Below, one piece after another: positions 506-28,148 of a DNA stretch of 64,000 nucleotides. Numbering within the stretch: the stretch's first letter is position 1; each line of letters opens with the position of its first letter. The position numbers and the translations under genes were made by a program. This DNA is from an uncultured Synergistales bacterium. Lineage in GTDB: Bacteria > Synergistota > Synergistia > Synergistales > Aminobacteriaceae. The notes under the pieces are model-generated. The model saw only the letters and a list, made by a program, of their open reading frames with translations, was not told the origin of the DNA and did no database searches. Where the stretch lies: the NCBI GenBank assembly GCA_905234075.1, contig CAJOGI010000007.1, positions 19,550 to 83,549 on the forward strand, read 5' to 3'.

Positions 506-2713
506 TTGAGTTTGAGAGCAAGAAAAAATCTGCGCGTAATTTTTTTATTATTAATTATTATTATGTTTTCAACTTCAACGGCGTTTTCAGCAGCACGGAG
601 AAAATCGAAAAATTCTTATGACATTATAATCGCCGGAGCAGGCACTGGAGGAATGGCCGCCGCTATACAGGCAGCGCGAATGGGCGTTGAAGTTTTAATC
701 GTCGAGCCGAGCACATGGATCGGAGGCCAAGCTACAGCCGCAGGAGTCTCGACTATGGACGACATGAGCAGACAGTCGAGCGGCATATATAAAGAATTTA
801 TTAACCGAATGAGAGATTTTTATGAGTATCACGGAAAATCTATGGGGACATGCTACTGGACTTCCAACAGCGTTGCATTCGAGCCGCATATCGGACAAGA
901 GTTTCTCGTCGCGCTTGTCAATGAGGCACGCAGAAAAAGCACGATAGATTTTTTGATGACTTCGGAAATTATCAGCGTCAACAAAAATAAAAATAAAATC
1001 ACCGGCGTTACTGTCAGAACTCCTGAAGGCGATAAGCGTTACGCCTGCAAAATTTTAATCGACGCGACGGAATACGGCGATTTAATCCCCCTCTGCGGAA
1101 TACCCTACAGGGCCGGAAATTCAATGTCGCCCTTCTTAAATCCCGACGCTATGGTCCAAGAAATTACCTGGCCCGCCGTAATTCATAGATACATGCCCAC
1201 CGTGCCGGACTACTTAAAACCGCGTGAGCCTCTGCCCGGTTACGAACTTGCGAAAAGAAATTACGAAAGCTATGTCTCTGCTGACGGATTTAATTTCAAA
1301 AATACTTATCCAGTTCAAACGCCCGTTAATTTTATTACGCATAACGCTTACAGGGGACTTCCCGACAGCTCGAACCCCTACAGCTATGACGCGGACAAAG
1401 AGAACAGAGAATATATTACTAAGACCGTTTTGAACTGGGGCAACGATTATCCCGGCACTTACGCTTGGAACGGAAAGCGCGGACTCCCCGTCGCCTATCT
1501 CGAGGACAGAGAAGTAAGAAAAGAATTTGAGCGCGAAGCTCTCTTAAAAACCCTTCACTTTATTTATTACATTCAGAACGAACTCGGCGAAGAATGGAGC
1601 GTCGCTGATGATGAATATAAAAATAGAATTTTGCCTGAAGCCGCCAGAGGACTTCCGCCGGAATGGCAGGAGATTGTTAAGCGTATGCCCGTTATTCCGT
1701 ATGTCAGAGAGTCGCGCAGAATTATCGGACATCATACTTTAACTTCACATGAGCTTCTTCAAAATTCATTGAGCTACAGGGACGGGCAGACGAGCCACGA
1801 ATTTTCAGACGCTATTGCGATAGGGGGCTATATCTTAGACCTTCACGGCGCGAACACCGACGCTGATATGGAATGGGATTTAGACGAACGCTCTAACACT
1901 TCCATAGTCAACAGACCGCGAGGGCCTTTCCAAGTTCCTATGAACATTTTAATTCCTAAAGAGACTGACGGATTTATAGCCGCCGAAAAAAATTTATCGA
2001 TGTCGAGACTCGCTCAGGGTGCTTTGAGATTACAGCCGATTACAATGATGACGGGGCAGGCCGCCGGAGCGTTGGCAGCAGTCGCGGTCATGGAGAAAAA
2101 AACTCCGCGTGAAGTTCACCCGTTGAGCGTCCAGTGGGAGCTGCTTAATGCCGGAGTTAATTTGTCGCTTTGCAAATATTCTGACGTTCCCGAAACTCAT
2201 TCGCTTAATAAGAGCGTTCAGCTTTCAAATTTATACGGCTTTGCTGCTCCTATCGATTACCCTCATTCAGTGCCGTTTAATCTCGGAGTTTATGACGACC
2301 CAGTGTGGGAAATGGCAATAATTAAAGGCGAGGACATGGGCGTGTTCGGCCTCAATGAATTAATTACGACTGGGGACGCGGCGAGAATTATAACGAATGC
2401 TCAAAATGTTTTAGGAATGAAAAGGCGTGCTCCTTCCGGGCTTGAGAAAGATAAATTAATTACACGCGGGGAATTAGCGAAGGCGGTGTATGAAGCTTTC
2501 CCGGCTCTGAAAAATATTCCGCGCAAGAGAGGCTCAAAGCTCCCGTTCAAAATCGAGAGCAACAGAAATCAAGATTACGTTACGGCTCTCGCGCACTTAG
2601 GAATTTTGAACGTCTACATGATTGACGGAACTTTTCATTACGGGCGGCCCGTTACAAAAGGCGAAGCGGTTGACATAATCGTGAGGGCCTGCGTAAATTT
2701 TGTGAAAAATTAA
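506..2713 (+). CDS. secreted FAD-dependent oxidoreductase (PF12831-like) with C-terminal SLH-like repeats
   Basis: N-terminal signal peptide. A GAGTGGMAAA Rossmann dinucleotide motif is present. The C-terminal segments ITRGELAKAVYEAFP and FHYGRPVTKGEAVDIIVRA resemble S-layer homology motifs. Confidence 0.55.
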   Translation: MSLRARKNLRVIFLLLIIIMFSTSTAFSAARRKSKNSYDIIIAGAGTGGMAAAIQAARMGVEVLIVEPSTWIGGQATAAGVSTMDDMSRQSSGIYKEFINRMRDFYEYHGKSMGTCYWTSNSVAFEPHIGQEFLVALVNEARRKSTIDFLMTSEIISVNKNKNKITGVTVRTPEGDKRYACKILIDATEYGDLIPLCGIPYRAGNSMSPFLNPDAMVQEITWPAVIHRYMPTVPDYLKPREPLPGYELAKRNYESYVSADGFNFKNTYPVQTPVNFITHNAYRGLPDSSNPYSYDADKENREYITKTVLNWGNDYPGTYAWNGKRGLPVAYLEDREVRKEFEREALLKTLHFIYYIQNELGEEWSVADDEYKNRILPEAARGLPPEWQEIVKRMPVIPYVRESRRIIGHHTLTSHELLQNSLSYRDGQTSHEFSDAIAIGGYILDLHGANTDADMEWDLDERSNTSIVNRPRGPFQVPMNILIPKETDGFIAAEKNLSMSRLAQGALRLQPITMMTGQAAGALAAVAVMEKKTPREVHPLSVQWELLNAGVNLSLCKYSDVPETHSLNKSVQLSNLYGFAAPIDYPHSVPFNLGVYDDPVWEMAIIKGEDMGVFGLNELITTGDAARIITNAQNVLGMKRRAPSGLEKDKLITRGELAKAVYEAFPALKNIPRKRGSKLPFKIESNRNQDYVTALAHLGILNVYMIDGTFHYGRPVTKGEAVDIIVRACVNFVKN

Positions 2714-2797: not shown

Positions 2798-2909
2798 AAA
2801 TTTTTATTTTTTTAGAGACGATAAATTTTTACGAAGCTGATAAAAAAAATAATGATAAAAAATTTTTCGGAGGCACTCAAAAAATTTCGAGCCGTATTTT
2901 TGAGTGCTT

Positions 2910-3392
2910 TTATAATTTTTGAATGACATCTTCCGGCGGAAGAGCCTCTATCATTTCTTGAAGGGTCTTCTTATTTTCCGGGTGCCGCCACGCGGACGGA
3001 AGTATATCCTTCAACGGCACAAGCACGAATAATCTTTCAGGCAGGCTTATATGAGGAACATTAAGCACCGATGATTTATAAACAATGTCGTCAATCAACA
3101 GAATATCAATGTCAATTTTTCTTGGCCCCCAGCGCACGGACTTTTCACGGCCAAGCTCATTTTCAAAATTTTTTACAGCTCTCAAAATTTCGAGAGGCTC
3201 AATAAAATTTTCTCTCTCGACTTTCGCGCAGGCGTTAAGGAAATCAGGCTGAACTACACCGCCCCATGCCTTAGTTTCATAAATGCCGCTGACGCTCGTT
3301 ATTTTTCCGAGCGATTTTATTTTTTCGAGAGCGTCACGGAGATTTTTTAACCTGTCGCCCAAATTTGAGCCGAGCCCGAAATATATCTGCAT
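2910..3392 (-). CDS. folK: 2-amino-4-hydroxy-6-hydroxymethyldihydropteridine pyrophosphokinase
   Basis: MQIYFGLGSNLGDRLKNL...WGPRKIDIDILL is the HPPK family signature. Confidence 0.85.
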   Translation of the reverse strand: MQIYFGLGSNLGDRLKNLRDALEKIKSLGKITSVSGIYETKAWGGVVQPDFLNACAKVERENFIEPLEILRAVKNFENELGREKSVRWGPRKIDIDILLIDDIVYKSSVLNVPHISLPERLFVLVPLKDILPSAWRHPENKKTLQEMIEALPPEDVIQKL

Positions 3393-22292: not shown

Positions 22293-23020
22293 TTAGCCGC
22301 CTAAATATGCCTTCCTGACAGCCTCAGAAGCTAAAAGCTCTTGGCCTGTTCCTGTCGTTACGATTTTGCCCGTCTCCATGACGTAGCCGCGACTTGCAAT
22401 GCTCAAAGCCATCTGCGCGTTCTGCTCAACTAATAAAATCGTTGCGCCCGTTTTGTGCAAATCGGCGATTATGTCAAAAATCTGCTCGACTAAAATCGGC
22501 GCAAGCCCCATTGACGGCTCATCGAGCATTAATAATTTCGGCCTGCTCATCAAAGCGCGTCCCATTGCAAGCATCTGCTGTTCACCGCCCGATAAAGTTC
22601 CTGCGGTCTGTTTCATGCGTTCTTTCAATCTTGGGAAGAGGGCATAAACTTTTTCTAACTCGTCATTAATTTCTTTTTGATTATTCTGCGTGTATGCTCC
22701 CATCTCTAAATTTTCCTGAACGGTCATTTGAGCGAAAACTCTCCGGCCTTCGGGAACTTGAGCGAGACCCTTCTCTACAATTTTATGAGGCGCAACCTTC
22801 GCTAAAGTCTCGCCTAAAAATGCTATGCTTCCTGTTGACGGGTGTAATAACCCGGAAATCGTGTTAAGCGTCGTAGATTTTCCCGCGCCGTTCGCGCCAA
22901 TTAACGTAACTATTTCGCCCTCATAAACTTCAAAGGAAATGCCCTTGATCGCGTGAATGCTTCCGTAAAAAACATTAATGTTTTCAACGTTTAATACGGG
23001 AGATAATTTTTCATTCATCA
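22293..23020 (-). CDS. livF: branched-chain amino acid ABC transporter ATP-binding protein LivF
   Basis: Walker A is GANGAGKST and the signature is LSGGEQQ. The start was chosen at the MMNEK ATG, preceded by a gggagg SD. The ORF track gives a longer 273-aa extension. Confidence 0.8.
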
Positions 23021-23906
23021 TTGCTTTTCTGCCTCCCCTCTTGTTTGCTTTCAATAAGTTTATCCTCGATGTAAGAATTTCTATTTTCTTTACTTCTTCC
23101 GAGATACGCTTCAATAACGGCAGGATTGTTTTGAATTTCGTCAGGCGTGCCCTTCGCGATAATATGGCCGAAATTTAACACGCAAATTCCCTCGCAGATA
23201 TTCATTACGAGGCTCATATCATGCTCGATTAAAACTATAGCAATCTGGAACATCTCGTGAACTTTGCGGATATTGTCCATGAGGTCGGCAGTCTCTGAAG
23301 GGTTCATTCCGGCAGCAGGCTCGTCAAGCAATAATAACGACGGATTAGTAGCCAATGCCCGGACAATTTCAAGCCTTCTCTGCGCTCCGTAAGGCAGTGA
23401 ACCTGCTCTCACATCGGCCATGTCCTGCATATCAAAGATTGATAATAATTTCAGGGCTCTGCGGTGAGCGGCTATCTCTTCGCGGCGGTAATTAGGAAGT
23501 CTTAAAATCGCGCTGAACATGTTATAGTGCATGTCGTTATTCATTGCGGCCTTGACGTTATCAACGACGCTTAAATTTTTGAATAATCTTATATTCTGGA
23601 ACGTTCTCGCAATTCCGGCCCTGTTCACCTGCATAGTATTCATGCCGTGAGTGTCTTTGCCGTTTAATAAAATTGTCCCCGTCGTCGGCTGATAAACTTT
23701 TGTTAAAAGATTAAAGACCGTAGTTTTTCCTGCGCCGTTCGGGCCGATTAATCCGGCTATTTATGTGCGTCCTATCGTTAAATTAAAATCCTCGACAGCT
23801 TTATTCCTAAGTTCACGCATTCAAGAACAGGCTCACGCGAAACATCACGCTCCGGCAAAATCGTCCTTGACGGTATAGTTACATATTTTGTTTTAGCTTT
23901 TGACAT
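23011..23906 (-). pseudogene. livG: livG (ABC ATP-binding protein) disrupted by a nonsense codon before Walker A, a frameshift, and loss of the RFGG region
   Basis: The intact C-terminal 210 aa match LivG (IARTFQNIRLF...LLLDEP). Upstream, in another frame, lies ...KAVEDFNLTIGRT*IAGLIGPNGAGKTTVFNLL, with a TAA where the conserved Glu is expected. A further frame shift and an approximately 16-nt gap remove the MRFGG segment. Confidence 0.55.
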
Positions 23907-23909
23907 GAT

Positions 23910-24974
23910 TTATTCGGCCCCCTCTTCTGTGCGCTTAAACGGATTTAGACGCGAGAGAAAATATTTAATCTCGGCGTTATTCGTCGCTAACATCATAACG
24001 ATTAAAATAACAGCGTAGAGCAGCATTCTGTAATCAGAGAACTGCCGCAGTTTTTCCGGCAGAATCGTCAAGACCGCCGCCGCTATTATGCCTCCGAGCA
24101 TGTTGCCCTGACCGCCCAAGACTACAAAAACTAAAATTAAAATCGAAGTGTTAAAGTCAAATTTATTTGCAACGATCGTTGAATAATTCATTGCGAACAA
24201 AGCACCTGCCGCTCCTGCCAATGCCGCCGAAGTTACGAAGGCCATCATTTTATATTTAGTGATGTCGAGGCCGATACTCTCTGCCGCTATTCTGTCGTCG
24301 CGTATCGCCATAAACGCACGTCCCGAACGTGAATTAACGAGATTAAACACGACCATCAACGAAATCATTAAGAGAATAAATCCGGCAGGGAAAGTCGCTA
24401 TTTTTTGTATGCCGCTTATCCCCATAGGGCCGCGAATAATTAATTTACCGCCGGGCAGTAATCTTGTAGTATCGCTCAACATACTAAGCTGAATGCCGCC
24501 GCTGTCAACGCCCATATAAAAATTATTGAGAATGCTCTTTATAATTTCGCCGAACGCCAGCGTAACGATAGCAAGATAATCGCCCTTTAATCTTAAAACG
24601 GGAATGCCGATTAAAAATCCTGCAACCGCCGCAAAAATTGCCGCGACTATCATAGCTATAGCGAGCCTCACGGGTGCGAACGGAATAAAACTTTGCAATA
24701 AAATCGCCGTCGCAACTCCTGAAAAAGCTCCGACCGACATAAAACCGGCGTGGCCTAATGATAATTCGCCTGAAATTCCTACAACTAAATTTAATGAAAC
24801 TGCCATGACCATATAAGCGCAAATCGGAACTAACATTCCGCGCATTGATGAGCTTAAAAATCTTGTGCTGCTCATGGTCTGACAGATTATATAAGCTAAG
24901 ATTACTATGCCGTAAGTTAAATATATTCTGCGTGCCTCTACGCGCTTTAAGTTTATTAATCTTCGCATTGTCAT
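23910..24974 (-). CDS. livM: branched-chain amino acid ABC transporter permease LivM
   Basis: Polytopic permease (LivM family). Confidence 0.8.
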   Translation of the reverse strand: MTMRRLINLKRVEARRIYLTYGIVILAYIICQTMSSTRFLSSSMRGMLVPICAYMVMAVSLNLVVGISGELSLGHAGFMSVGAFSGVATAILLQSFIPFAPVRLAIAMIVAAIFAAVAGFLIGIPVLRLKGDYLAIVTLAFGEIIKSILNNFYMGVDSGGIQLSMLSDTTRLLPGGKLIIRGPMGISGIQKIATFPAGFILLMISLMVVFNLVNSRSGRAFMAIRDDRIAAESIGLDITKYKMMAFVTSAALAGAAGALFAMNYSTIVANKFDFNTSILILVFVVLGGQGNMLGGIIAAAVLTILPEKLRQFSDYRMLLYAVILIVMMLATNNAEIKYFLSRLNPFKRTEEGAE

Positions 24975-25036
24975 TTTATGTATTTTTCACTCCTAATTTG
25001 TAATTCAGATAGAACGCAGAAAGTAAAAAATAAAAA

Positions 25037-25067
25037 ACTCCTGCCTCCTAATTCCTAACTCCTACCT
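25037..25067. repeat. TAGGAGT-family repeat between livH and livM
   Basis: The plus strand reads ctcctgcctcctaattcctaactcctacctg. On the minus strand it is followed by a T-run. Confidence 0.65.
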
Positions 25068-25069
25068 GA

Positions 25070-25951
25070 TTACACTTTCTCCTGTAATTGTTTTCCAAGC
25101 AGGCCCGACGGCTTCACGAGCAAAACTACAATTAAAACAGCAAAGACTACAGCGTCAGAGAGCTGACTCGAAATATAAGCCTTCGCAAAAATTTCTATAA
25201 CTCCGAGCATTAAGCCGCCCAAGAACGCGCCCGGTATTGAGCCTATACCGCCGAAAACCGCCGCTGTAAATGCTTTAATTCCAGGCAGTGAGCCCGTAGT
25301 CGGCATTAAAGTCGGATAAGCGGAACATAACAACGCCCCTGCGACAGCCGCAAGCCCTGAGCCTATCGCAAATGTTAATGAAATAGTAGCGTTGACGTTA
25401 ATTCCCATTAACTGTGCCGCTCCTTTATCCTCCGAACATGCTCTCATGGCCTTGCCGAGTTTTGTTTTAGATATAAAGAGCGACAACACTATCATAATTA
25501 TTAAACACGTCGCAATAGTTAAAGCCGTAACGTGAGAGACAGACAACGCGCCGTCAAATAATTTGAAAGCTCCACGCCCGATTATTGACGGAAAGACTTT
25601 GGGATTTGATGACCATAATAATAACGCCGTATTCTGAAGAAAATAGCTCATGCCGATAGCAGTTATTAAGACTGCTAAGGACGGAGCCTGACGGAGAGGC
25701 TTATAAGCTAGACGCTCTACTATAATTCCGAGTAAAGTACACGCCGCCATAGCAATGACAACGCCTAAAAAAGGGTTTAATCCGTAACGCGAGACAGCGT
25801 AGAAACATACATAAGCTCCGACCATGATGACATCGCCGTGAGCAAAGTTAAGCATTTTAGCAATGCCGTAGACCATTGTGTAGCCAAGCGCGATGATTGC
25901 GTAGATACTTCCGAGACTTATACCGCTGATAAAGAAATTCAAAAATATCAT
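25070..25951 (-). CDS. livH: branched-chain amino acid ABC transporter permease LivH
   Basis: LivH family permease. Confidence 0.85.
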   Translation of the reverse strand: MIFLNFFISGISLGSIYAIIALGYTMVYGIAKMLNFAHGDVIMVGAYVCFYAVSRYGLNPFLGVVIAMAACTLLGIIVERLAYKPLRQAPSLAVLITAIGMSYFLQNTALLLWSSNPKVFPSIIGRGAFKLFDGALSVSHVTALTIATCLIIMIVLSLFISKTKLGKAMRACSEDKGAAQLMGINVNATISLTFAIGSGLAAVAGALLCSAYPTLMPTTGSLPGIKAFTAAVFGGIGSIPGAFLGGLMLGVIEIFAKAYISSQLSDAVVFAVLIVVLLVKPSGLLGKQLQEKV

Positions 25952-25976
25952 TAAAAATTTATAGCTCCTTTTATTC

Positions 25977-26124
25977 AGGTAGGAGTTAGGAATTAGGAGG
26001 TAGGAGGTAAAAAGCAGTCTGAGATTCTATTAAGGCCGTATTTCCCAGACTGCTTTTTTATTTAGGCAGAAAGTAAGATTTTCTTATCCATACTTCCTAC
26101 CTTCTACCTCCTACCTCCTACCTG
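25977..26124. repeat. composite element: inverted TAGGAGT-family repeats (25977-26009 and 26091-26124) flanking a bidirectional terminator hairpin (gcagtctg...cagactgc, 26014-26053) between livK and livH
   Basis: The left arm caggtaggagttaggaattaggaggtaggaggta and the right arm tacttcctaccttctacctcctacctcctacctg are imperfect reverse complements of each other. The central hairpin has flanking A- and T-runs. Confidence 0.65.
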
Positions 26125-26126
26125 TA

Positions 26127-27248
26127 TTAGTCAAGTCCGACGTACGCGCCGTCTTTAATGACCATGCCTTTGGGGTCTTTTGTAACTTCGCCGTTCTTTG
26201 CCCACTTAACATTCTCGCCGGTTACGCCGTTGAATGTCATTGTCGTGAACTGCTCAATCATTTTTGCGCAAAGAGTTTCCGCGTCCATGTCAGGCGTGGC
26301 CTTCGCAAGCTCTAACGCTTCTTTGTAAGCATATACGCAGTCATAGCCGTCAGCCGCGAACTGATTAGGAACTTCGCCGTGCTTTGCTTTGTAAGTCTCG
26401 ACGAATTTCTGAGTCTTTGCGTCCTTTGCGTCAGCGTTGAACGGTGTTAAAAGAATAACGCCCTCTGCTAATGACTTGTCGAAGCCTTCCATCGTTAAAA
26501 TTCCGTCCATGCCGTCAACTCCGAACCATTTAGGAGCGTAGCCCATAGCCTGAGCCTGTGCAAGAATCAATGAGGCCGGCTGATAATACATCGGAAGGAA
26601 TACGAGTTCCGCGCCCTTGTTCTGAGCGTCCGTGAGCTGTACGGAGAAATCGTTGTCATTACCGTCAGCAAACGTTGTCTCGCTCACGACCTCAAGGCCA
26701 AGCGCAGGGGCTTTCTCTACGAAAGTATCTCTGATGCCTTTTGAGTAAACGTCGTCATTTTTCCAGATAATCGCGATTTTTTTGCCGAGTTTTTTCTCAG
26801 CGATGTACTGTGCGCTCGCACTTCCCTGATTAGGGTCAACGAAGCACATCTGGAATACGTTATCTTTTCCTTCTGTTACTGCCGCTGATGAAGCTGACGG
26901 AGTGAGAGCAAAAATTCTGTCTGCAAAATTTTCGGCTGCTGTTGCCTCGCAGGGTTTTGAAGTTACAGAGCCTAAAGAGACCTGCATTCCCCAGTCTTTG
27001 AGGGCGTTATAAGCGTTGACTGCTTTCTCTGCATCGTGTGTGTCGTCCTCGTAACGTAACTCAAACTGAACATCTCCGCCCATCGCATTAATCTCTTCAA
27101 CTGCGATTTCAGCACCGAATTTTGCCGCGTTTCCGTAAATTGCCGCGCCGCCGGTGAGAGGGCCCGTGCCTCCGATTTTGAAAGCTGCGCCGAATGCGCA
27201 TGAAGTCATAGCAAGGATAAGAACTGCGCTGATTAAAATCTTCTTCAT
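26127..27248 (-). CDS. livK: branched-chain amino acid ABC transporter substrate-binding protein (LivK/LivJ)
   Basis: Signal peptide present. Type I periplasmic binding protein fold (Leu/Ile/Val-binding family). Confidence 0.85.
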   Translation of the reverse strand: MKKILISAVLILAMTSCAFGAAFKIGGTGPLTGGAAIYGNAAKFGAEIAVEEINAMGGDVQFELRYEDDTHDAEKAVNAYNALKDWGMQVSLGSVTSKPCEATAAENFADRIFALTPSASSAAVTEGKDNVFQMCFVDPNQGSASAQYIAEKKLGKKIAIIWKNDDVYSKGIRDTFVEKAPALGLEVVSETTFADGNDNDFSVQLTDAQNKGAELVFLPMYYQPASLILAQAQAMGYAPKWFGVDGMDGILTMEGFDKSLAEGVILLTPFNADAKDAKTQKFVETYKAKHGEVPNQFAADGYDCVYAYKEALELAKATPDMDAETLCAKMIEQFTTMTFNGVTGENVKWAKNGEVTKDPKGMVIKDGAYVGLD

Positions 27249-27346
27249 AAAAAATATCTCCCTTGTAAAAAATTTATGCTCAGCCTGAAAATAATCTCTA
27301 CGGCCTGAAGAATTTTATTTTCAGGGTTAAAGCCCTGTAACAATAA

Positions 27347-27376
27347 CAAAAAAGCGGTCTTTGGAGTAGACCGCCT
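27347..27376 (-). terminator. rho-independent terminator/attenuator downstream of the leader peptide
   Basis: On the minus strand, aaggcggtct-actcca-agaccgcc is followed by tttttt. Confidence 0.55.
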
Positions 27377-27410
27377 TCGCTGCTAAAATTCAAGCGTCCT
27401 GCTCCTGCCG

Positions 27411-27518
27411 TCAGCAAGCAATAATAATAATGACAGCAACAATAAGCAGGCATACAAAAAGAGCACTGACACACGAAGCTGAATTTCTTTTCATGCTGTT
27501 TACAAAATCTTTCTTCAT
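27411..27518 (-). CDS. candidate leader peptide (35 aa) rich in Ile/Leu/Val upstream of livK
   Basis: Translates as MKKDFVNSMKRNSASCVSALFVCLLIVAVIIIIAC. The SD is aggagg. The stop lies approximately 35 nt upstream of the terminator hairpin. Not in the ORF track because it is under 60 aa. Confidence 0.45.
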   Translation of the reverse strand: MKKDFVNSMKRNSASCVSALFVCLLIVAVIIIIAC

Positions 27519-27561
27519 AGCGTCTTATGCCCTCCTAACATTCACATTTAATTTTTATTTT

Positions 27562-27638
27562 CTGGCGCGGTAGGCAGGATTCGAACCCACGACCTAAGGC
27601 TCCGTAGGCCTTCGCTCTATCCAGCTGAGCTACTACCG
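27562..27638 (-). tRNA. tRNA-Arg (anticodon ACG)
   Basis: Manual cloverleaf: acceptor GCGGTAG/CTACCGC, D-arm GCTC-AGCTGGATA-GAGC, anticodon stem AAGGC/GCCTT with loop CTACGGA, T-loop TTCGAAT, and a CCA end. Confidence 0.8.
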
Positions 27639-27658
27639 CAGGATTTTGATTTTATTTT

Positions 27659-27752
27659 ATGGCGGTGGGTGTGAGATTCGAACTCACGATAGAGTTATTA
27701 GACCCTATACTCACTTAGCAGGCGAGCGCCTTCAGCCTCTCGGCCAACCCAC
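27659..27752 (-). tRNA. tRNA-Ser (anticodon GCT), long variable arm, CCA encoded
   Basis: GGTGGGTTGGCCGAGAGG...CCTGCTAAGTGAG...GTGAGTTCGAATCTCAC-ACCCACC-G-CCA. Length 94 nt. Confidence 0.8.
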
Positions 27753-28148
27753 CGTAAAACAAAACGGTGCATATATTATAACGGTATTAAAATATTGTCA
27801 AACGAATTTTTTTAGAGTGTCAGGAAAAATTATTTTCTTCTTCAAAAAAAATTTTATGCTAAAATATTTTTATTCCATTCAAAATTTTAAGAAAGAATTT
27901 TTTGCAACTACATTTACACCTACAAAAAGTTCAAAAATTTTTTGCGCCGATAAAATTTTACGGAGCTGATTAAAAAAATAGAATCAAAGATTTTTTTTAA
28001 GGCTTGGAAAAAATTTTTGCGATGAGTTTGTAATAATATCCGTTAATTTCAAAGGGCCTTGCGGGCATACTCATTACTAGGTACGCTTCGTGCATCGAGA
28101 CAGAAAATTTTTTTGCGATTGTTGTTTGAGCTTCATAGTCCGGGTCGG

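Follow-up and report, generated by a model that had tools for sequence, protein, structure and literature searches.

Leader-peptide attenuation is textbook regulation for amino-acid biosynthesis operons of the Proteobacteria and of a few Gram-positive bacteria. In the Escherichia coli leaders ilvL (of ilvGMEDA), ivbL (of ilvBN) and leuL, branched-chain codons are clustered in a short open reading frame (ORF) that is followed by a terminator, and ribosome stalling selects between antiterminator and terminator (PMC6123439). Here, we describe a candidate for such a device in a stretch of 64,000 nucleotides from an uncultured Synergistales bacterium (GenBank assembly GCA_905234075.1, contig CAJOGI010000007.1, positions 19,550 to 83,549; referred to below as the window, with position 1 as its first letter). 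A 35-codon leader ORF and an intrinsic terminator lie between two tRNA genes and a livKHMGF operon for a LIV-type ABC transporter. We judge it probable that the locus is a ribosome-mediated attenuator which lies in the 3' trailer of an operon for tRNA-Ser and tRNA-Arg, senses isoleucyl-tRNA and decides whether transcription passes that operon's terminator into livKHMGF. An earlier note on this DNA had proposed an attenuation leader, and the conserved ORF with its Ile codons, the three alternative helices and the fixed place before livK support that interpretation in silico.

As in ilvL, ivbL and leuL, a short ORF with clustered branched-chain codons is combined with an intrinsic terminator and alternative helices. 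Unlike these leaders, to which it has no sequence or family relationship, the present one uses Ile only; its target is uptake and not biosynthesis, it follows two tRNA genes without a promoter of its own, the antiterminator makes use of the terminator loop, and the leader Shine–Dalgarno (SD) sequence is sequestered after transcription. With the E. coli trpL attenuator it shares three exclusive helices, regulatory codons at region 1, a stop codon just before region 2 and a terminator at least as stable as the antiterminator, but it belongs to another phylum, senses another amino acid and has another target, and helix 1:2 is much stronger here (−16 to −32 kcal/mol). In trpL, whose terminator is the more stable of the two, kinetics decide which one forms.

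Outside the Proteobacteria, leader-peptide attenuators have been described for the ilv-leu operons of Staphylococcus aureus, Listeria monocytogenes and Corynebacterium (PMC5794164, PMC5864092, PMC10272879, PMC11857589). These likewise have a leader with branched-chain amino-acid (BCAA) codons that governs transcription read-through, but they control biosynthesis and are combined with CodY or other regulators. In the literature searched, BCAA attenuation is described for operons of biosynthesis and transporters are under the control of CodY, Lrp or a T-box (PMC6123439, PMC5794164, PMC2494555); we found no leader-peptide attenuator there for a LIV-type transporter or in Synergistota. T-box leaders control amino-acid transporter genes in Firmicutes (PMC2494555). 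Both there and in our proposal, uncharged or scarce tRNA turns on uptake genes by letting transcription continue past a terminator, but a T-box senses the tRNA by direct RNA–RNA contact and has no ORF; the T-box covariance model gave no match at this locus or upstream of 20 orthologous livK loci.

A search of the locus against Rfam matched only the two tRNAs, even at E values of up to 10. The leader peptide matched nothing in NCBIfam (including IlvL and IvbL), and Pfam returned two chance-level matches with one member each (E values of 0.14 and 0.94). As proposed, it is the same kind of device as the known leaders, but it is outside the Leu, His, Thr, Trp and Phe leader families of Rfam and the leader-peptide families of NCBIfam. 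If the proposal is true, it adds an example of attenuation in the Synergistota, amino-acid fermenters whose gene regulation is almost unstudied, and an attenuator that controls uptake through a LIV-type ABC transporter rather than biosynthesis. The build would be unusual: there is no separate promoter, the terminator of a tRNA operon is reused, the loop of that terminator takes part in the antiterminator and the leader's own SD is locked afterwards. For annotators the locus provides a concrete small ORF that has been overlooked, and it gives a way to test how rumen Synergistaceae sense isoleucine.

Layout of the locus

All of the elements lie on the minus strand. The sole consensus-like promoter 5' of the tRNAs and the leader is a TTGACA-17-TAATAT site (27801..27773; 10/12 matches in a consensus scan), and an equivalent TTGACA..TAATAT is also present upstream of tRNA-Ser in the related locus L090. 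It is followed by tRNA-Ser (anticodon GCU, 27753..27660) and tRNA-Arg (anticodon ACG, 27639..27563), both identified by ARAGORN and by the Rfam tRNA model (54.1 and 63.8 bits, respectively). The gap from the 3' end of tRNA-Arg to the leader ATG is only 44 nt, too short to house a separate leader promoter between tRNA-Arg and the ORF. A scan of the window detected no terminator-like site between the tRNAs and the leader ORF, as the earlier note had stated, and we infer that they are cotranscribed. An ORF downstream of tRNA genes in one transcription unit is also found in E. coli, where the tyrT-tpr and thrU-tyrU-glyT-thrT-tufB tRNA operons are cotranscribed with coding sequence; to our knowledge, neither of these is an attenuator of a downstream operon.

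The elements named in the earlier note, a 35-codon ORF with an AGGAGG SD directly after the two tRNAs and a terminator shortly after the ORF and before livK, could all be located. The SD (27536..27531) lies 12 nt before the ATG, which is a rather long spacing, and is part of the 5' arm of a helix that we call H1 (AGGAGGGCAU, 27536..27527). The ORF itself (27518..27411) encodes MKKDFVNSMKRNSASCVSALFVCLLIVAVIIIIAC and ends in a TGA at 27413..27411. Within it, an anti-SD segment, GUGCUCUUUUU (27466..27456, codons S-A-L-F), forms the 3' arm of H1, and region 1, CCUGCUU AUUG UUGCUGUCA (27450..27431, codons L-L-I-V-A-V), contains a single Ile codon (27443..27441). Four consecutive ATT (Ile) codons follow at 27431..27420; these are the proposed stalling site and lie in the loop of helix 1:2 (H2), which region 1 forms with region 2. 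Region 2, UGA CGGCAGGAGCAGGACGCUUG (27413..27391, with a GGAG core at 27405..27402), begins at the stop codon and has alternative partners: region 1, or the terminator 5' arm together with the loop (the antiterminator, 2:3). The terminator (regions 3 and 4, 27378..27348) consists of a stem-loop (27378..27350) and a U-run to 27348; its 5' arm is GAAGGCGGUCU (27378..27368), its loop is ACUCCAA (27367..27361, with CUCC at 27366..27363) and the 3' arm and U-run extend to 27348. The scan tool counts 11 stem pairs plus a U6 run, and the stem begins 32 nt past the ORF stop.

A conserved hairpin element (27334..27272) occupies the space between the terminator and the livK SD. The livK ATG is at 27248, 163 nt past the ORF stop and 100 nt past the terminator, and opens the operon that we propose to be regulated (livK-H-M-G-F, 27248..22293). 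This comprises genes for a livK-like binding protein (27248..26127), livH-like (25951..25070) and livM-like (24974..23910) genes, and livG-like and livF-like ATPase genes down to 22293; in NCBIfam they match best to families of high-affinity BCAA ABC transporters, with scores that all stay under the equivalog cut-offs.

Conservation of the leader and its isoleucine codons

The livK protein is 80–93% identical to homologues from rumen Synergistaceae and Fretibacterium-like bacteria, which places the window in this group, and the order tRNA-Ser, tRNA-Arg, terminator, livK is general in this clade. The leader ORF was found at loci L005, L008, L009, L011, L012, L017 and L021, to which a profile search (using a profile built from eight leader variants) and contig look-ups added L087–L092. 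Each of the 12 distinct ORF variants follows tRNA-Arg and precedes both the terminator and a Peripla_BP_6 gene, and the peptide identical to that of the window was upstream of a Peripla_BP_6 gene on each of the nine contigs examined that carry it. In a tblastn search of the window and of 80 loci, the peptide had no paralogue. The ORF was thus never found away from livK, contrary to the possibility, raised in the earlier note, of a genuine small membrane protein standing alone elsewhere. The 15-mer GGCGGCTGAACTCCA had 120 matches in metagenomes, which were chance matches, none of them in a terminator context.

The run described earlier as 11 consecutive branched-chain codons consists of nine BCAA codons and two Ala codons. 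Such an ORF is not beyond chance in the window alone: among 305 ATG-initiated ORFs of 20–70 amino acids, seven contain III or at least 8 BCAA in 11 residues, and only the leader ORF reaches 9 in 11. A 29-residue ORF containing IIII, MALPSFVLDIKSDNTIIIIKHVAIVKAVT, runs antisense to livH (25446..25535, plus strand) and is most likely to be a chance product of hydrophobic-segment codons read on the opposite strand. As a chance-like IIII ORF exists there, Ile runs alone are weak evidence. The leader ORF is more than chance because at this one locus 12 diverged variants have retained the ORF together with its SD, its Ile clusters and the flanking RNA helices. Among the ORF-bearing variants the synonymous sites of livK are near saturation (synonymous divergence pS of 0.36–0.80), and the open frame is retained in the 12 variants although the nonsynonymous divergence pN is 0.11–0.46.

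The feature that is conserved in relatives is a pattern of Ile only: a single or double Ile, a spacer of 2–4 codons and then II, III or IIII. Ile clusters are present in all 12 variants, with 4–7 Ile per 31–48 residues (8–19%, compared with 7.8% in the long ORFs of the window), and ATT accounts for 53 of the 60 Ile codons of the variants (88%, compared with 50% in the long ORFs of the window). Conservation of the codon run in relatives thus holds, as Ile-codon enrichment is kept in the 12 variants and also in the distant locus L032. In place of BCAA in general, as first suggested, isoleucine would be the sensed signal. Beyond the Ile run, the tail is between 2 and 14 codons long. The peptide evolves rapidly under weak constraint: for the same genome pairs, it has a ratio of nonsynonymous to synonymous divergence (dN/dS) of 0.2–1.1 (median ∼0.5), compared with 0.02–0.09 (about 0.05) for livK. 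Synonymous sites have diverged less in the leader than in livK, a sign of constraint at the RNA level. RNA pairing accounts for the conserved peptide motifs other than Ile: ALF corresponds to the anti-SD, and I-P (AUU CCN) supplies the UUCC with which GGAG pairs. In most variants the hydrophobic stretch contains charged residues, proline or glycine, which disfavours a conserved membrane helix.

Alternative helices of the leader RNA

Mutually exclusive helices 1:2, 2:3 and 3:4 are predicted thermodynamically in all 12 variants and in L032. Region 1 is conserved as a pyrimidine-rich segment, UUCCNGNC, between or overlapping the Ile clusters, and region 2 as GNCNGGAG..GCUU, starting at or just past the stop codon; the stop codon is 2–8 nt before GGAG in ten of the 12, despite the variable length of the tail that follows the Ile run. 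The energies across the variants are −16.5 to −32.2 kcal/mol for 1:2, −10.8 to −18.6 kcal/mol for 2:3 and −12.5 to −21.6 kcal/mol for 3:4, with values of −21.0, −14.1 and −14.7 kcal/mol (terminator), respectively, in the window. Helix 1:2 is therefore more stable than 3:4, which in turn is at least equal to 2:3. An antiterminator pairing, which the earlier note had suggested looking for by folding, is possible in every variant with an energy close to that of the terminator.

The 2:3 helix pairs GGAG(U) with the (A)CUCC of the loop and GCUU with AGGC at the base of the terminator arm. The purine-rich part of region 2 alone gave no 2:3 pairing when examined by hand; the full helix was found by RNAduplex, according to which region 2 is the best upstream partner of the terminator 5' arm and loop in ten of 11 variants. 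The 2:3 hairpin is also the minimum free energy structure of the segment from the stop codon to the terminator loop in 12 of 12 variants, with z-scores against dinucleotide shuffles of −0.5 to −3.7 (mean of −1.7). In place of equilibrium folding of the full leader, we folded transcripts truncated before the terminator 3' arm with a ribosome mask on the Ile codons: with the mask, 2:3 forms in ten of the 12 variants (not in L009 or L017), and without it region 1 holds region 2 in most variants. A region 1:region 3 antiterminator, which would have the inverse logic, was also considered and was rejected as the 1:3 pairing energy is at background.

Across the 13 sequences, too few for a statistical test of covariation in the alternative helices, the CCNGNC:GNCNGG core of helix 1:2 shows compensatory changes between variants (for example CCUGUC:GGCAGG, CCGGCG:UGCUGG, CCUGCG:UGCAGG and CUGUCAU:AUGACAG). 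The core of 2:3 is invariant, and its flanks are extended differently in three lineages (CUGGAG:UUCCAG, GUGGAG:CUCCAC and UGGAGU:ACUCCA). CUCC in the terminator loop accompanies the ORF: it is present at 12 of 12 ORF-bearing loci and in L032 and at none of 12 ORF-less loci of the main clade.

The SD and the start codon are conserved across the variants. In helix H1, GUG..GCUCUUUUU (peptide motif C-V-x-A-L-F) pairs with the SD and start region, and this is kept in all eight aligned variants; among the SD:anti-SD pairs in this alignment there is a single broken cell and a single compensatory change. H1 fits the model in that it may restrict translation to the nascent transcript and silence the abundant terminated RNA.

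Proposed mechanism

In the proposed attenuator, transcription would start at the promoter 5' of tRNA-Ser and continue through both tRNAs to the leader. A ribosome would load on the nascent SD before the anti-SD, ∼60 nt downstream, is transcribed. When Ile-tRNA is plentiful, the ribosome would reach the stop codon abutting region 2, which would be masked or, after release, would re-pair with region 1; the terminator 3:4 could then form and transcription would end. When Ile-tRNA is scarce, stalling at the Ile codons, which overlap region 1 or flank it, would leave region 2 free, 2:3 would form before the terminator 3' arm is made, and RNA polymerase would continue into livK. Without translation, 1:2 would form and termination would be the default. 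In the finished terminated RNA the SD would be locked in H1, so that translation of this abundant by-product is silenced. What the sequences show are the elements, their conservation, their pairing potentials and the energies of these; ribosome stalling, a kinetic contest among the helices and a need of liv for read-through are the steps that we infer.

The product of termination could conceivably have a function of its own. In Sinorhizobium, the attenuator-derived small RNA (sRNA) rnTrpL and the functional leader peptide peTrpL come from one attenuator (PMC7968998, PMC7298713). The present locus resembles this system in that the terminated attenuator RNA would be a discrete small RNA that also encodes the leader peptide, but the trans function has been demonstrated in Sinorhizobium and is purely hypothetical here. 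It would be a long shot that the terminated leader RNA (∼210 nt, freed by tRNA 3' processing), besides gating liv, is a dual-function trans-acting sRNA that reports on isoleucine, with its conserved, exposed CUCC loop pairing with the SDs of other mRNAs. Such an RNA could be made at tRNA-operon rates, with its availability or the synthesis of the peptide set by ribosome traffic on the Ile codons.

The spacer between the terminator and livK

Nearly all of the relatives, with or without the leader ORF, have a two-tier hairpin of ∼60 nt between the terminator and the livK SD (27334..27272 in the window, and just upstream of livK in L001–L024 and L087–L092). It has an outer helix, GCUU/RAGC, a stem, CCUGARA../..UYUCAGG, and a loop, GGCCGUARAG, and is followed by the invariant GCAUAAAU. 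Seven of the eight stem pairs show compensatory changes, and the observed covariation score was reached by none of 500 shuffles. The element has no match in Rfam and no other copy within the window. At loci with a single copy it begins 6–16 nt past the U-run; because it starts so soon, RNA containing both of its arms would have to come from upstream of the terminator. At the level of sequence, the covarying hairpin supports the biological relevance of read-through, and any transcript that passed the terminator would carry it in the liv leader. Its possible roles are those of a cis-regulatory RNA, a stabilizer of the liv mRNA in the 5' untranslated region, or an inverted repeat around a weak promoter. 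No consensus promoter was found between the terminator and livK at most loci; there are weak candidates only, each in a minority. At three loci the hairpin is found in tandem copies upstream of livK, with about five or six copies in L008 (2545..3000), about five of a variant form in L011 (2580..2985) and two in L088 (370..705); the spacer between the terminator and livK is lengthened accordingly, to 450–490 nt in L008 and L011 and ∼340 nt in L088.

Distribution and loss of the leader

The ORF-bearing loci are scattered on the livK tree, which indicates at least six losses of the leader ORF. The family suggests how such a switch may be lost, by repeated short deletions that fuse the SD to the terminator arm. 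The ORF-less alleles L001, L004 and L007 read as the leader SD joined to the terminator arm, GGAGGCGGTCT; at these loci (L001 2856..2905, L004 2826..2880 and L007 522..590) GGAAGAAGGAGGCGGTCT/GGCGGCCT stands directly before the terminator loop. Deletion between the purine-rich arms, fusing the SD (AGGAGG) to the terminator 5' arm (AAGGCGG), is a plausible route for the repeated loss.

In L032, a Fretibacterium locus that is more distant, tRNAs are missing upstream. Its ORF, behind a consensus TTGACT-17-TATAAT promoter, is longer and shares the DALF...VII motifs; the GGAG segment after the stop codon is the same, and a CUCC-loop terminator precedes livK. As L032 keeps the module beside livK without tRNAs, the module is linked to liv and not to the tRNAs. 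TTGACT-17-TATAAT is directly 5' of the ORF in both L030 and L032, and L026 and L030 combine a BCAA-rich ORF with a promoter and with a terminator of different detail. A hairpin followed by a U-run is found inside the small ORF in L030 (2693..2735), at the equivalent position in L026 and in L032 (2694..2730), with the sequences GACGCC-(Leu-Val-Ile-Ile-Ala codons)-GGCGUC-UUUUUU and AUGGACGCC..GGCGUCCAU-UUUUUUU; such a terminator-like hairpin within the distant ORFs may represent a different, translation-blocked attenuation design.

Weighing of the alternatives

Several observations weigh against attenuation at this locus. Equilibrium folding of the full leader gives a terminator probability of ∼1 under every ribosome mask, and the model therefore relies on kinetics; we considered equilibrium folding as evidence against the antiterminator and rejected this, since classical attenuators are also under kinetic control. 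The 2:3 z-scores are modest (−0.5 to −1.5) in seven of the 12 variants, and the support for this helix is mostly conserved sequence, with no double compensatory change in an alignment-based count. The long spacing from SD to ATG (9–13 nt across variants) and the sequestration of the SD in the finished RNA both lower translation of the leader, and the L087/L091/L092 clade has a weaker cluster, retaining only II and scattered Ile. The terminator is first of all that of the tRNA operon; 17 relatives without the ORF still have it, 25–40 nt after tRNA-Arg. The ORF has been deleted in at least six lineages of the same clade that retain tRNA-Arg, the terminator, the hairpin and livK; since these keep the rest of the locus, liv can work without the leader, and ORF-less relatives must express liv somehow. 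A weak σ70-type promoter candidate lies past the terminator at six of 22 loci (score of 8/12), with its −35 element in the hairpin loop, its −10 element in the invariant GCATAAAT and a spacing of 16–18 bp. Finally, tRNA promoters are typically down-regulated during amino-acid starvation in E. coli, which would oppose induction.

Some of these points would also suit an independent small gene, or a dual-function sRNA, in the tRNA trailer, with livK transcribed from its own weak promoter and the adjacency reflecting inherited synteny. The ORF-containing RNA would then be released by tRNA processing, end at the operon terminator and act as a peptide or via its CUCC loop; a conserved terminator-hairpin loop is a common sRNA seed, as in hairpin 14 of RNAIII. 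We regard this explanation as rather unlikely. It accommodates the persistence of the terminator and of tRNA–livK synteny without the ORF in 17 relatives, the frequent loss of the ORF, the promoter candidate at GCATAAAT in six of 22 loci and the internal anti-SD, as sequestration of the SD is typical of tightly controlled small ORFs. It leaves unexplained, however, why the stop codon abuts region 2, why Ile clusters flank region 1 and why region 2 has complementarity to region 1 as well as to the terminator 5' arm; moreover, the peptide is close to neutral outside the RNA-constrained motifs, L032 has the module beside livK without any tRNA, and the module was not seen away from livK among the homologues found. 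That the module is a decaying relic which no longer regulates in this genome, the complementarity being residual, we consider improbable. The repeated independent deletions do show that it is dispensable, and the L001, L004 and L007 alleles look like simple SD-to-terminator fusions (GGAGGCGGTCT), but at the near-saturated synonymous divergence of livK an unconstrained 200 nt would no longer align, whereas the SD, start codon, frame, Ile clusters, helix 1:2, region 2 and loop CUCC are intact in 12 lineages and the window copy has no defect in any element of the module.

A peptide with a charged N-terminal segment and a C-terminal transmembrane helix, as in type I toxins or other small membrane peptides, would account for the 18 uncharged, mostly hydrophobic residues with which the window peptide ends (SALFVCLLIVAVIIIIAC), for a sequestered SD and structured mRNA that resemble those of toxin mRNAs, and for the patchy presence among relatives. 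This we find very hard to credit, as R, E, K, N, P or G break the hydrophobic stretch in most relatives (for example GAIIRPVIIITEA and AVESLIIPAIIIRTRK), some variants keep only ∼11 uninterrupted hydrophobic residues flanked by charged ones, and the peptide dN/dS is ∼0.5. The plus strand has no promoter-like site for an antisense RNA at 27340..27560 (a weak test, being a consensus scan only), and the terminator is not bidirectional, with no U-run after the hairpin on that strand. The module is also single-copy at a fixed locus, with no paralogue, and the peptide matches no toxin family in Pfam or NCBIfam.

Other observations at related loci

In the ORF-bearing loci L005 (2488..2717) and L011 (2038..2374), three or four degenerate copies of the tRNA-Arg 3' half lie between the genuine tRNA-Arg and the leader ORF. 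These partial copies consist of the T-arm and acceptor end with an insertion, and resemble the repeats that lie distal to tyrT in E. coli. Genes for a PHD_like protein and an HNH endonuclease are inserted between livK and livH in L083 (4535..5711) and L086 (1632..2808), which have the identical leader peptide. Upstream of Firmicutes livK orthologues we found nothing consistent in the way of BCAA-rich leaders; three tandem skipping-rope RNAs (Rfam RF02924) are present upstream of a Bulleidia livK orthologue (L036, 1506..1810, minus strand). Lastly, the close relatives L020 (∼2835..2915) and L022 (∼2480..2560) have a different conserved ORF of 26 codons between the tRNA terminator and livK; its product reads M-x-VKL-x-FSC-x-NLAVIVYLELLLCIIV and it overlaps the terminator 3' arm.

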